Origin: Girardia tigrina
Lineage: Eukaryota
Length of the DNA: 64,000 bases
Reading direction: 5' to 3'
Assembly (NCBI GenBank): GCA_001938485.1
Contig: MQRK01241354.1
Coordinates: forward strand, 1 to 64,000
Below are positions 37,471 to 64,000 of this stretch, piece after piece. Within the stretch, counting starts at the first letter, position 1; the number at the start of each line of letters is the position of its first letter. A program made the position numbers.

Positions 37471-40400
37471 GATTAAAGCTTTTTTTATACAACTATTGGA
37501 CATGTTTCGATGTTTATATACATCATCATCAGCAAATTTCTATTGAATTGTTTGAATAATACAATTTTTCACAATTTTAATAAATATAATTTAGTTTAAA
37601 AGGTAACGAATAAATTAAACATTTTTATTCGTTAATAAAAATTACGAAGTTTTCGTTACCTTTTAAACTAAATTATATTTATTAAAATTGTGAAAAATTG
37701 TATTATTCAAACAATTCAATAGAAAATTGCTGATGATGATGTATATAAACATCGAAACATGTCCAATANNNNNNNNNNNNNNNNNNNNNNNNNNNNNNNN
37801 NNNNNNNNNNNNNNNNNNNNNNNNNNNNNNNNNNNNNNNNNNNNNNNNNNNNNNNNNNNNNNNNNNNNNNTATATATATATATATATATAAATGTATAAA
37901 ATAAAAATAAAGTTTGTTTCATGACAGTTAATGAACCATATTGTATTAACAATATTGATAATTTGGATAATATGAAATCATTTTTTTACTGTTTTAAAAT
38001 ATTCTACTGCTTTTATTTATTTTTTTTATTTTCTATATTTATATATTTTGAAATGATTGGAACAAAATTGATTTGTTACAATAACCTGAAAGGAATAGAA
38101 TAAATAGTACGGACACCAGAAAAACGAAACTTTACCATAAATAACGGAAAAGTAGTTTTAAACATTATCAACAGATATAAGGAAGAAAGCAAATGGAAAA
38201 AAAATAATTTATTAAAGAAGCACAAACAGAGCAACAGGAAAAAATGTATTATATTTTATGAAAATATATAAATAAGACAAATTTAATTTATTCTCATTTA
38301 ATCGATTTAGTAGTAAAAAATAATTGTAGAAAATGTATTTATGATCTTTTAAGATTTTATTTGTCCAATTTTTAGGTAATTTTGTCTTCATTTTTTAATT
38401 AGTATTAAAAAAATCTTTTTAATTAAAAATTATTATAATAGTTCGCAGTTATTAAAATATAAATTATTCACAAATTATTTATATAACGCATCTTATATTT
38501 TACATATAAGCTTTAGGCTATAAACTAATATAAAAATATAATATATATAATCTAATCTATGTATATATAATTAATTTTTGAAATAACTTATAGAAAATAA
38601 TTTTTACGCTATTGTAGTATAAAATGTTTTATATATATATTACTTACATATTTGTAATATATTTTTTAAAAAAAATGCTGATTGTGATAATTGTTTATTT
38701 AATTTTAATTTTTTCTTTAATATTTGGATTTATTAGTATTATTTTTAATTTATTTCTTTTAAAATCATAACCTTTCTATTAATTCTAGGACCGATTATTA
38801 TCTTGTATCGTGCCACAGCCAATTCTGGTGGAGCTTAAGCAAAGCATTTTGATGAAAGAATTGCATGGACAACTTCCGTCGGTCGTACATCTTCGCAACG
38901 TCAGGTAAAGAAACAAATTTAACAATATATGTGCATTTTTTAAAGATAATTCATAATTTATTATTTTATAGTTGATAACTACATTATGAGAATATATTTT
39001 GCAATAATGTAGGAATTTTGATATTATGATACATTTATTTAAAATGAAAGTGTTACAAAAAGACATAAGCATGAAAGATATAACGCAATCCTCATATTTT
39101 AGATGAAAAAATGCACTTCATTCCAAATTGATTGATGCAAAACATTTGAAGTGTAAAAAGTTTAAATCAGTATGTACTTAATTATTATAACATCAAAGAT
39201 TGATTCATGTTTCTACGCATCTTTCAATCGTCATATAAAAGTTATTTGTGAAAGTCTCTGTACCTTTATTGTATAGATGAAAATGAATGTTTGTGTTCAA
39301 ATTTATCCATCAATCTTTATTTAATGTTCGTTGATATTGATTCAGTACCCATTTTTATTTGAGTACTTTGAAGAATCTTATTAATGATCTATTGAGTTTT
39401 TTGTTTAGCAAGTGACACAGGATGAGGACAAGAATTCCAATTTGTCCAATACTTATTGGCTTATTTTCAGCCAAAACACGTTGTTTCAAACAGAAGGACA
39501 CTCACACATCAAGGTGTCGCATATACAATCAATATTTGACTTAGATATTGTATATTATACAAGTGGTCAGGACATGAGTAATAAATGATTGAATAGATTT
39601 TCGTCTACTTTTATCAGGTTTCAGGCTTCAGAATAAACGGAGGAAAGGCTTGAATGGCCCGAGACTTCCAGGGTACATTGCTGATCTTTAAGATTTCTGT
39701 AAAATTCTCGAAGAGCGTTTCTTTCTTCTCAGGAAAGTGTCTAAAAACACGAGATATGTGTTAGAGAAACTTGTTACCTGTTGAGATGCGTATTTCCTTA
39801 ATCTCAGTTTTAACCTTTGAAGAAGGCTACTTTCACTTTATCATAATTTAATATCACATCCTTCACAAGTAAGTACTCGATGTTTGGTGATTTAGTTGAT
39901 CAATGGTGTTAGTCAGTTATTACAATTCGAAGAACGTGATCAATTTCATGATATTGGAAACTTAGGAACTTGGATTTAGGGTGAAATGATATTTCATTTA
40001 ACACTGATAGAGATTCTAAATTTGCAAAATCTTTGATAAATATAAATACATATTATCATTTAATTTAATTTATAATTTGAAATATTTATTATAATCATCT
40101 AGAAAAATCCTATATGATTTATATAAAATTATTTATTTTTTATGGTTTTCTGCTAAGTTCTACTTATTTATAGTTTTATAAATGTCGAGATATGCGGTCT
40201 TAGTCGCGGAACTAAAATTGATATCAACGGCAGCTCACTCTCAGCCGATATGGTAAAGTTAATGAATGAACTCTTTTCACGTTTCGATATGCTTGGCCAA
40301 GTATTTGTGTATTTTGAAAGTTAAAATAAAAGTTAAATTTTGTTTAGGAACTTGGTTGTTACCAAGTTCGAGTGCATCCAGACGACTATTTGAGCTTAGC

Positions 40401-61000: not shown

Positions 61001-64000
61001 CTGTTTTATTAAATTAATGTCATTTAAACCATTGGTTCTCGTAAGGAATATAACGTTTGTTTTTCCATGAATCAAGACAAGTAATTTGATTATAGTCCTA
61101 AGGTGTCTGTGTCATTCGGTCAGTCAGGGGTATTTAGCCATACAGGGATGAAGTCGCCATTGAGCTGAGTCTTGTTCAGACTGCTTCCAGTTTGTTTCAT
61201 TGAGATCACTCTAACACATTTCTATTTCACTGACATTAACAAATTCTTTCTCTTTCTTAGATATTTATATCAATTATATTTCAAAATCATTTATTTAATG
61301 TAATTATTTCGTCCTTTTATATATTTTTAACTGAAATTTGTGACATTTTTGTGTATAGTTATCATGTTTTTTTGACAATAAATATTTGTTACAAGTTTTT
61401 TTATTTGTAATTTAATTTTAATTTAATTTTGTTGAATAGTAATAATGTCAAATCAACAATTTATTATTAGAGTGATGCATAAATTTCCAAACATTTTTAA
61501 TTAAAGCTATTTATTTTTTTAAGTAAAGTGGCGTACGATTAATCTTCAAAGTATTCACCATTAGCATCTATGGTCTTTTGCCATCTTTGTGGCAACAAAT
61601 AGATACCTTTAGTGAAAAGTCTTCATCTTTCGAATCAATAAAGTCATCTATGCATTTCTTGACTTCATCGCGTGTTTTGAAATGTTGTCTAGCGAGATAA
61701 TGTTGGAGAGACCGAAATATATGAAAATCTGTTGGATCCAAGTCCGGTGAATAGGGCGAATGCAGTAGAACCTTCCATCCAAGCGCTAAAATCATATTAT
61801 TTGTCGCCGACGCAACATGTGATCTAGCGTTATCATGCAGCAGTATGTCCTTGCGTCAACTATGGCCCAAATATTTCGTTAACTCACTGATTTTTTCGTT
61901 CAGTTTAGATAGCTGAATACAATAGCATTATGCGGTAACCGTTTGTCCGGGATCCCACAACTCATAATAAAGAAGGCCCTTCATATTCAACTGCATACAC
62001 AGAAGGACCTTCATGCCATAAATATTGCGTTTTGGGATGGGGGTTGATGGAGTTCCGGGGTCTACTCATTGCCTCTTTCGTTCTGGGCTATCATAATACA
62101 CCAATTTCTCGTCCACAGGGACTATTCTCCCTATAAACGATTTTCTTCGGTGGCGAGTGAGGTGAGCCTTGGCGATATTCATCCTATCCTCCTTGTTTCG
62201 GGAAGAGAGAGCAAATGGAACCCATCTTGTTGCTTTCTGCACCTTTCCTAGAACTTTCAGATGCTGTAAGGACTATCGACTGGTTAACGTTGAGGCGCTT
62301 GGCCAGTTCACGGGTTGACTGTCCATCATTATGTTCTAAGAAAACCAGAAGCTCTTCGTCCTCCATTTCTTTTGGGCTACCATTTCGTGGTTGGTTCTCC
62401 AGGTAGAATTCTCCCTTCTTGAACTTGGCATACCATTCTTTGATCGTTGTAAGGCCAACAGAACCTGTACCATATGCTTGGTAAATTTCGTCCTACGCTT
62501 GCGACGCCTTTTTGCCAAGATTAAACCTAAATAATATACAGTGGCGTATGTGATTTTTATTGATATCCATTTCTAGAATAATAAAAAAAATAAACACGTG
62601 GATTTTGGGGACAATGAAAGAAGTATATCTCTTTTTTATTAAAGGTCGGAAATTTATGCATCGACCATATAATTAAAAATAGGAAATAAAACAAGATTAA
62701 TCATAGAGATTTTAATGAAATTTCATTTTTTGTTTGACGCTTCTTTGCAGTGTATCGCTCGTATAGGAACACATTTTAAAAATCCAATTTTTATTTGTAT
62801 CTGACCTTTTTAGAGAATTTTAAGACAGTTTTATTATTTTTTAGATTCTTTACATATTTTAGAGCCATATATTAATAATCCAATTTCGAATCTCGAATGT
62901 AAGTTTTACATTCCATAATATTAATTGTTTTGACAAATTGATTGATAAGATGCAAATATTTCAAATGACTTTAGAAATCATTTCAAGTAAAAAAATATTC
63001 GTAAAACTAAAATTAAATCCGTCGGCATCGAAACACTTGTGTCATTTAACAAGTGAATTTCGAATCCGTATATTCTCTATTAATGGAAAAATGTGTTGTA
63101 AAATTTTTGATACGAATTAAGAAAGATGACAACCATTATGAGGTCCCACAGAAATTTAGAAAAAGTGACACGACAAAAGCTATGAATTAAAAGATAAAAA
63201 TGGAAAATTATTGATAAAGAAAGTGGTTGAAGCCTTTTAAATGAGGGAGCAATGATATATTACAAAATTAAATAAAATAAATTAAAGAAAATATTACATA
63301 AAAACTCAAGTTTTTAGTTAATTCAATTTAAAAATATACTTTCGATCATATACAACAGTTGATTTGATTAATTGATTTTGAAAAAAAAGAATAAAAAGAA
63401 AGTAAAATTTTCTAGACATCTCTCCTTAGAGTTTAACTTACAGGTCTGAAATATATTAAATTAAAAACATAATTACGAAAGTTGATGAACAAAACATTTC
63501 AGAATCTTTTCAGCAGTGATTGTAAAACAGTGGCAGTCCTCAGCGTTTCCATTCCCTCTTGGTGTCCGGCGGGGGTAAAGGAGCCGAGTGACGTTGCGAG
63601 CAATATTAGAGTGTTGAATCAGTTATTAATTACATTTGATGAAGTATATTACATTGTTAAATGATTTTATTTTGACACATTCTTATAGGTATTAGAAAGT
63701 TCTGAATACGAAGGGATAATAAAAGTTCGAACTGCTGGAGAAACTGCATGGTATGCTGTTGGAATTGATCCAAACCATCAACTCGAAGTAATTCTAAAAT
63801 TTTAAAAATTTTATAAAAATTTGGTTGCAGAATTCCAATGACAGATGCCGTTTAATGACGCATCTTCTTCGGGGAGCAGAAATGTTAAAGCGAATTGTGG
63901 AAGAACATAATACTAAAAACGCAGACTGTAGATTTTATTTAAGAATTGGTCAGTATTGGTGTATAAAATGTATCTAGATATATAAAATATATATATTTAA

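Follow-up and report, generated by a model that had tools for sequence, protein, structure and literature searches.

A predicted adenylyl cyclase-like gene of Girardia tigrina and its flatworm relatives with replaced catalytic residues

Metazoan transmembrane adenylyl cyclases (tmACs) are familiar from textbooks as enzymes whose catalytic residues are regarded as almost invariant. Here, we describe a stretch of 64,000 nucleotides from Girardia tigrina (GenBank assembly GCA_001938485.1, contig MQRK01241354.1, positions 1 to 64,000 of the forward strand; this whole stretch is referred to below as the window), in which we predict a tmAC-like gene with substitutions at its catalytic columns. Canonical metazoan tmACs (AC5, PDB codes 8sl3 and 1cjk; AC8, 8buz; AC9, 7pd4 and 6r3q) consist of two six-helix membrane blocks (M1 and M2), each ahead of a cyclase domain (C1 and C2). 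The canonical residues are the metal-binding Asp, the phosphate-binding Arg and Lys, the ribose-binding Asn, and the adenine-binding Lys and Asp, and in class III heterodimers the catalytic residues are divided between the subunits (PMC3591389). In the mammalian C1-C2 pair and in the alpha/beta pair of soluble guanylyl cyclase (sGC), the fold and the dimer are kept and one pocket lacks catalytic residues, while the other is fully active. A further point of comparison is AC3-AT of brown fat, an AC-derived membrane protein that is encoded by a truncated transcript of an active gene and has a proposed role other than making cAMP (PMC11971047).

The window gene has the M1-C1-M2-C2 order and the six plus six membrane stretches of canonical tmACs, together with the class III fold signature in C1 and the same helix spacing into C1 and C2. 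It departs from them at the catalytic columns, where Asp is replaced by Glu, Gly by Pro, Arg by Lys, and Lys by Arg; its loop after beta-1 is longer, and no window exon alone reaches the Pfam cut-off. It also resembles a set of giant AC-like proteins of flatworms, with which it shares the order of parts along the full length, Glu at the first metal column, and the loss of the adenine Lys. In contrast to mammalian C1-C2 and sGC, both pockets of this flatworm family are off the canonical set, and in contrast to AC3-AT, the window gene appears to be a full-length gene of a separate, anciently diverged lineage. We consider it fairly probable that the window covers the greater part of a gene that is spliced and apparently functional, and that its product is a 12-transmembrane (12-TM), two-domain, adenylyl cyclase-like member of this family, which is maintained and is catalytically impaired or repurposed.

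Residues at the catalytic columns

In C1 of the window copy, the column of the first metal-binding Asp (D396 in AC5) is occupied by Glu (GAG, 40187-89, in the context FINVEICGLS). The column of the second (D440) retains Asp (GAC), which is preceded by Pro in place of Gly (40378-83, in the context RVHPDDYLSLAG), so the canonical pair of metal-binding Asp residues is not present as such. The column of the phosphate-binding Arg (R484) holds Lys (AAA, 44844-46, LDVKTVIHTG), and in C2 the column of the adenine-specifying Lys (K938 in AC2) holds Arg (CGA, 63728-30, IIKVRTAGETAWY). A first-pass annotation of this DNA had reported these four codons, with the Asp at 40381-83, as departures from the canonical residues, and we recovered each of them where it had been placed. 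The same annotation had described an insertion after the Glu, and the loop that follows beta-1 of C1 is indeed longer than in two canonical comparators.

The model was searched exon by exon, and the C1 and C2 matches given here are those of single exons or of exon open reading frames (ORFs). When exon B (exon 6 of the model) was aligned by HMMER to AC5 C1 in the PDB, Pro-Asp fell opposite Gly-Asp (E = 0.0016), and all 25 of the 25 matched sequences were nucleotide cyclases. The ORF of exon C, which carries the Lys at 44844-46, aligned to bovine AC9 with this Lys opposite the Arg of MRVG (E = 0.0028). The same Lys was aligned to Arg in P0025, a tmAC-type cyclase of Strigamia, and in P0012, the two proteins that served, together with alignments to solved cyclases, as canonical comparators. 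Exon A (exon 5) matched AC8 over its second half only, which covers the helix after the metal site (E = 0.32); the assignment of Glu to the Asp column comes from MAFFT placement against 20 relatives and two canonical cyclases, and it is backed by the ungapped context RNVS-FINVE.

The replacement of Lys by Arg in C2 is the weakest of the four assignments. It combines MAFFT placement, a collinear tblastn match to C2 of the Clonorchis sinensis relative P0004 (E = 0.002), and the rank reached by a family C2 profile (see below), and the alignment support for the column is weak. Exon 15 had no match in the PDB. Exon 16 returned 127 PDB sequences at E ≤ 10, of which the best 60 were all non-cyclase, the matches being chance ones to transthyretin (E = 0.2-0.5). 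The Pfam cyclase domain PF00211 scored 15.0 bits on one exon (E = 0.019) and 13.1 bits on another (E = 0.071), both under the cut-off of 21.9, and 8 of the 10 window segments scanned exon by exon gave no cyclase match.

The same columns were counted in flatworm relatives, over 20 proteins for C1 and 17 for C2, and the assignment of columns agrees with that in an independent HMMER alignment of the Opisthorchis protein P0013 to AC5 (8sl3). The D396 column is Glu in all 20 relatives, as in the window. The position before the second Asp is Ala, Ser, or Pro in the relatives and Pro in the window. At D440 itself, Asp is found in the window and in 2 of the 20 relatives (Cichlidogyrus and Trichobilharzia), and the next column (D440+1) is Glu in 20 of 20 and Asp in the window. 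The R484 column is Arg in 15 relatives, Lys in 4, and Asn in 1, and the window Lys is within this range. In C2, none of the 17 relatives has Lys at the K938 column (His in 9, Tyr in 5, Phe in 2, and Asn in 1), so the Arg of the window differs from all four of these residues. The remaining C2 columns of the window copy lie beyond its last base. In the relatives, the adenine Asp (D1018) is absent from all 17 (Asn in 6, Thr in 5, Leu in 5, and Gly in 1), the ribose Asn (N1025) is kept in 7 of 17, the transition-state Arg (R1029) is kept in 4 of 17, and the KGKG loop has its Lys in 0 of 17. Two relatives, P0006 and P0021, do not differ from each other at any of the catalytic columns. As read from these alignments, the canonical catalytic set is systematically replaced in the family while other columns stay invariant.

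The C2 columns that match the metal-binding Asp residues were also read. The window has Ser and Glu there, and the only relative with an Asp is P0016, in the first column. The lack of Asp in these columns argues that the active site has not simply moved to the other pocket, and a swapped active site, in which the metal-binding Asp residues had shifted to C2, was rejected. The Glu in question (63734-63736, exon 16) occupies the C2 column of the second metal Asp, which is Ser in P0025 and varies among Thr, Asn, Ala, Ser, and Phe in the relatives. The C2 loops of the window copy have canonical lengths and are without the large C2 inserts of the fluke and tapeworm proteins. The MAFFT alignment of C2 misplaced exon 13, and its row was disregarded. 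Midway through its C2, P0004 has 11 extra residues (at about 1640-1650) that the 97%-identical Opisthorchis P0013 lacks, and these are probably a gene-model artefact.

A flatworm family of giant cyclase-like proteins

A phmmer search of 1.84 billion proteins with the exon C ORF gave 12 matches at E ≤ 1e-3, the best at 3.8e-10, with identities of 32-51%. Of these, 11 are members of one flatworm family or short fragments that align similarly; the other, P0012 (E = 8e-4), has two domains and looks like a canonical cyclase. With a best identity of 51%, no identical or near-identical protein was found in the collections searched, and a word-indexed protein search with the same ORF (at the 'longer' lengths) scored none of 138 candidates.

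The named members come from Clonorchis, Opisthorchis, Dicrocoelium, Paragonimus, Calicophoron, Schistosoma, Trichobilharzia, Mesocestoides, Taenia, Hymenolepis, and Cichlidogyrus, so that the family spans trematodes, cestodes, and one monogenean. Its proteins are very large (2,100-4,200 residues) and carry automatic names such as 'adenylate cyclase', 'type 5', and 'Ca2+/calmodulin-responsive'. P0004 is the Clonorchis sinensis 'Ca(2+)/calmodulin-responsive adenylate cyclase' (3148 residues), and P0013 is Opisthorchis felineus CRM22_008754. P0017-19 are Schistosoma and Trichobilharzia proteins of 4100-4200 residues, and P0021, P0023, and P0024 are proteins of Taenia, Hymenolepis, and Mesocestoides, the cestode members having 2100-2400 residues. 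P0002, a fragment named 'Adenylate cyclase type 5' from the monogenean Cichlidogyrus casuarinus, is the closest to the window over exon B, at 70% identity. PF00211 was found in all nine family relatives scanned (31-102 bits), with two cyclase stretches in three of them, and the subtype-specific Pfam domains AC_N and DUF1053 were absent from all nine.

Profiles were built from the relatives alone and scored on 2229 segments of the window. The family C1 profile gave E values of 8e-24 (exons 7 and 8), 1e-17 (exon 6), 4e-4 (exon 5), and 0.02 (exon 4) on four collinear window exons, and of the 37 C1 columns that do not vary among the 20 relatives, the window retains 28. Such a likeness is beyond chance. 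With the C2 profile, exons 16, 17, and 15 ranked first, second, and fourth of the 2229 segments (E = 0.03-0.16), and 11 of the 12 best segments of a full-length family profile are exons that we had modelled; all of them lie on the + strand, and they follow the order of the family. The window copy thus has the C1 sequence that is particular to the family, Glu at the first metal column with an acidic residue (here Asp) after the second, and a C2 without the adenine Lys that is collinear with the family C2, the collinear matches in C2 being weak. The motifs AGYPETRVDHA, VHTGxxYxAVLG, RVLxSxxTxxQLPxG[FY]xGxxGP, and an ETxYxxPR-like motif occur in both. As judged by these alignments, the window gene is a divergent member of the flatworm giant AC-like family: it differs from its relatives in the Asp at D440, in the Arg at K938, in the absence of long C2 inserts, and in its identity of only 32-51% over the best exon.

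The relatives also share features beyond the cyclase domains. Of the 17 relatives that extend past C2, 16 have a tail, at least about 1,000 residues long, with NPxY and [ED]YDN[LVA] motifs, and no Pfam domain was found in the C-terminal tails of the four tail-bearing relatives scanned. NPxY and YDN-type motifs are docking sites for PTB and SH2 domains. Other tail motifs recur across flukes and tapeworms, namely an AEIAxEAxRISxQF-like helix (10 of 17) and LPGC[MV]SS (5 of 17); in the tail of P0004, example residues are 2131, 2554, 2730, 2789, and 3078.

Our literature searches turned up no account of a degenerate cyclase family in flatworms, and the family appears in databases under automatic cyclase names only. 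In the text of each that was available, PMC9904461 reviews only the classical cyclase activity of Fasciola, PMC12984799, a study of a planarian 'ADCY9', gives no residues and may concern a related or a canonical gene, and PMC13356687 does not mention flatworms.

Gene model, assembly gaps, and introns

The window is AT-rich, with a GC content of 0.18-0.34 per 2-kb step, and contains four runs of N (233-350, 10993-11173, 37769-37870, and 58754-59430). Nothing in it resembles human DNA, and its nearest proteins are all those of flatworms. The predicted gene comprises 17 exons on the + strand, from 12499 to 63948, with boundaries read from the DNA. All 16 acceptors are AG and all 17 donors are GT, the phases are continuous, and none of the 1148 codons is a stop. 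The 17 exons include the split made by a 42-nucleotide (nt) in-frame intron and a last exon past the interval of the first-pass annotation (40174-63787), whose own list of 17 exons may differ from this one; its unbroken reading frame over 17 exons is borne out by the model. Its description of the gene as intact goes further than the window allows: the model begins near 12499, some 28 kb upstream of 40174, and the 3' end of the gene falls outside the window. The final donor (63949, phase 1) follows RFYLRIG, which indicates that the gene continues past base 64000, and only the first ~120 residues of C2 are within the window. The full M1-C1-M2-C2 layout claimed for the gene is therefore visible only in part, as M1, C1, M2, and those ~120 residues of C2. 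By hydropathy, the hydrophobic stretches are arranged as 3+2+1 before C1 (M1) and again as 3+2+1 before C2 (M2), giving two six-helix membrane blocks, each ahead of a cyclase domain. In M2, five windows were scored, the sixth stretch, in exon 12, being fused with the one adjoining it.

Exon 1 (12499-13177) encodes the N-terminal region and three hydrophobic stretches (TM1-3) and matches positions 155-210 of the full-length family profile (E = 0.076). An in-frame stop at 12430-32 precedes its ATG at 12499, with no other in-frame ATG between the two, and there may be a further exon upstream. Exon 2 (27232-27422) encodes two hydrophobic stretches (TM4-5; profile positions 386-434, E = 0.061). The start codon and the donor of exon 2 are the least certain boundaries of the model. 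The donor at 27423 was picked so that M1 stays six-helix; an alternative in-phase donor after 27482 would lengthen the exon by 20 codons (27423-27482) and give a seventh hydrophobic stretch. Exon 3 (29958-30107) contains TM6 and the beginning of the helix into C1, which continues in exon 4 (38789-38904) as the pre-C1 helix (DRLLSCIVPQP to HLRNV). The phase-2 donor of exon 4 joins exon 5 (40174-40300), the first exon in the earlier annotation, as AG plus T to encode Ser, and exon 5 carries beta-1 of C1. In exon 6 (40348-40475), which encodes beta-2/3, Pro-Asp-Asp at 40378-86 stands at the G-D-x columns and is followed by AGYPETRVDHA. Exon 7 (44807-44965) carries the Lys at the phosphate-Arg column, and exon 8 (45008-45170) encodes the end of C1 (KVLVSKATYEQLPDGYKGDSGP to METFYLRPK) with its family-specific motifs.

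Exon 9 (48906-49384) encodes a polar low-complexity linker that resembles a C1b region and has no Pfam match, and the linker continues in exon 10 (49483-49642). M2 is encoded by exon 11 (49689-49970; three hydrophobic stretches, TM7-9; profile positions 1105-1185, E = 0.083), exon 12 (52603-52811; two adjoining stretches, TM10-11), and exon 13 (56324-56450), which holds TM12 and the beginning of the helix into C2. The pre-C2 helix follows in exon 14 (56497-56613, ending in ILLPKFVISHYFNPSRNYM). C2 itself begins with beta-1/alpha-1 in exon 15 (63503-63643, VAVLSVSIPSW to IRVLNQLLITFDE) and proceeds through beta-2/3 in exon 16 (63689-63787), with the Arg at the adenine-Lys column, to alpha-2/alpha-3 in exon 17 (63831-63948).

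The program-flagged gap at 58754-59430 (677 N) had left the continuity of the frame in question. It lies inside intron 14 (56614-63502, 6.9 kb), between exon 14, which ends in HYFNPSRNYM, and exon 15, which starts with NLFSSDCKTVAVLSVSIPSW, and both edges are in phase 0. The shared PSR motif is separated from the start of the beta-1 strand of C2 by 15 residues in the window (exons 14 and 15) and by 15 in P0004 of Clonorchis, and this equal spacing indicates that no exon is missing at the gap and that the frame is continuous. A hidden exon within the gap was ruled out on the same comparison with relatives. The run of N at 37769-37870 lies in intron 3, and the spacing between exons 3 and 4 agrees with that of the relatives.

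Intron lengths are sharply bimodal: of the 16 introns, six measure 42-47 nt and nine 1.3-14 kb, with a single one of 98 nt. Introns as small as those of the first class are unusual in an animal genome. The shortest, a GT..AG stretch at 44966-45007 (42 nt), is in frame and stop-free and may be either a mini-intron or a 14-residue lineage-specific insert; its residues fall in insert states of the family profile, the relatives are without a counterpart, and other introns of 43-47 nt occur in the gene.

The long introns contain broken remnants of mariner/Tc1-type transposases at 56853-57664 (-), 61571-62492 (-), 31629-32478 (-), and 21638-22629 (+). Their Pfam matches are Transposase_1 (E = 8e-17), HTH_48 (E = 9e-5), and HTH_Tnp_Tc3_2 (E = 8e-9), and the 21638-22629 remnant was recognised by eye only, its two ORF pieces having no Pfam match. 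In intron 14, mariner remnants with matches to Transposase_1 and HTH_48 flank the gap on either side. Just 3' of the gap are two open frames, at 59538-59855 (+, 106 codons) and 60012-60239 (+, 76 codons), that may be a mobile-element remnant; a scan of the 106-codon frame gave no Pfam match. Upstream of the gene, at 1475-2222 (-) and 7255-8145 (-), are retroelement-like open frames, one of 185 codons, which has no Pfam match at E ≤ 1e-3, and several of 60-90 codons. TA-type dinucleotide microsatellites at 9380-9419, 29290-29330, 37420-37470, and 54990-55040 translate as YIYIYI runs.

Competing readings and a proposed role

The first-pass annotation had considered that the gene looks maintained, and the model agrees with it: the 1148 codons are free of stops, all splice sites are intact, and 28 of the 37 invariant columns are kept. 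Its reading of a pseudo-cyclase or atypical cyclase was reasonable, and it can now be extended, as the rewiring is common to the flatworm family and not confined to one gene; the residue changes are, however, not those of simple decay. The specific roles that it put forward, as a G-protein sink, as a dominant-negative partner, or with a changed nucleotide specificity, stand as hypotheses. Three of the changes in the window copy conserve charge and the fourth (Gly to Pro) leaves the adjoining Asp intact, the residue at D440+1 is invariably acidic, and Arg or Lys is found at R484 in 19 of 20 relatives, which suggests that the C1 site has been remodelled under selection rather than left to decay freely.

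A mechanism can be proposed along these lines. In the C1-C2 pair, ordinary two-metal cyclisation of ATP would be lost or feeble. The acidic and basic trio of C1 (Glu at D396, Glu or Asp at D440+1, and Arg or Lys at R484) may still bind a metal-phosphate ligand, while C2 would have given up its base-recognition and transition-state residues. The protein could then act as a membrane-anchored sensor or scaffold that binds nucleotide or metal and not as a source of cAMP, with the long tail of the relatives, through its conserved NPxY and YDN-type motifs, as a possible docking platform.

Several points weigh against a protein that has lost catalysis. Three of the four changes in the window copy conserve charge (Asp to Glu, Arg to Lys, and Lys to Arg) and the second metal-binding Asp is present, which leaves room for a working site, and the invariant Glu, Glu, and Arg/Lys trio could equally mean that a shifted metal site sustains catalysis. 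Activity is also found in some bacterial class III cyclases whose base-specifying residues are other than Lys and Asp. The column counts are not independent, as the relatives include five from Paragonimus and two from Schistosoma, and all relatives are automatic gene models. In the window copy, the assignment of C2 is weak exon by exon (E = 0.03-0.16 with the family profile and no PDB cyclase for exons 15 and 16), and the codons equivalent to D1018, N1025, R1029, and K1065 lie beyond base 64000. Its own tail is likewise outside the window, and the tail motifs are known from the relatives.

The strongest competing explanation, which we regard as unlikely though deserving serious weight, is a working but atypical cyclase, in which Glu and Asp would hold the metals, Lys would replace the phosphate Arg, and Arg would replace the base Lys; such an enzyme would have a low or altered activity or prefer another nucleotide. 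The charge kept at D396, R484, and K938 in the window and the Asp at D440 are consistent with such an enzyme, as are the C2 loops of canonical length, unlike those of the fluke proteins. The Glu at D396 and D440+1 in all 20 relatives and the Arg or Lys at R484 in 19 would be expected if metal-phosphate binding were selected. Against it stand the Pro that replaces Gly in the Gly-Asp turn of the window and the low Pfam scores of its single exons (15.0 and 13.1 bits under a cut-off of 21.9). The relatives, moreover, have no adenine Lys or Asp and no KGKG-loop Lys in any of 17 and have lost the transition-state Arg in 13.

We consider it highly improbable that the gene is a fast-evolving orthologue of a canonical subtype, such as AC9, and not a separate lineage. 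The PDB matches of the exon C ORF are all to AC9 (four of four distinct sequences, E = 0.003-0.005), and some relatives have been automatically labelled 'type 5' or 'Ca2+/calmodulin-responsive'. However, exon B is closest to AC5 and exon A to AC8, P0013 scores AC5, AC9, and AC8 nearly alike (1.9e-31 to 3.8e-28), the flatworm family outranks all canonical ACs in the search of 1.84e9 proteins, and AC_N and DUF1053 are missing from the nine relatives scanned. Orthology to AC9 in particular was rejected, as the exons split over AC9, AC5, and AC8 with no special tie to the first. A decaying pseudogene or unexpressed relic with an accidentally open frame, for which one could cite the lack of a near-identical protein (none of 138 candidates; best identity, 51%) and introns loaded with transposon remnants, is scarcely credible given 1148 stop-free codons over 17 exons with intact splice sites, the 28 of 37 family-invariant C1 columns, the six plus six hydrophobic stretches, and a family maintained in trematodes, cestodes, and a monogenean.

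Returning to a maintained protein with impaired or repurposed catalysis, the window copy is, on the residues compared, the least derived member seen, since it has Asp at D440, Lys for Arg, Arg for Lys, and no large C2 inserts. It is therefore in this copy, more than in the fluke and tapeworm proteins, that some residual or atypical activity is plausible. We regard it as plausible, though somewhat short of likely, that the family is an ancient, phylum-wide 12-TM cyclase-like lineage without cAMP synthesis, extending past flukes, tapeworms, and monogeneans to the AT-rich genome examined here. In it, the C1 pocket would bind a metal-phosphate ligand as a signal, C2 would have lost its base-recognition and transition-state residues, and the tail would serve for docking through motifs of the phosphotyrosine type, so that the protein would work as a membrane receptor or scaffold, with the window copy as a near-intermediate.

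If this is true, it would be, as far as our literature searches show, the first case in which a metazoan tmAC has given rise to a whole family of pseudoenzymes. The patterned replacement, in a lineage conserved in parasitic and other flatworms, in which acidic and basic residues of C1 are kept and base-recognition and transition-state residues of C2 are lost, would amount to a natural experiment on the non-catalytic roles of the cyclase fold and its 12-helix anchor. It would also bear on annotation, as family members labelled as cyclases would count as sources of cAMP in pathway reconstructions for flukes and tapeworms. The Girardia tigrina copy, which keeps more ancestral residues than the other members, would be useful for ordering the steps by which the family changed.

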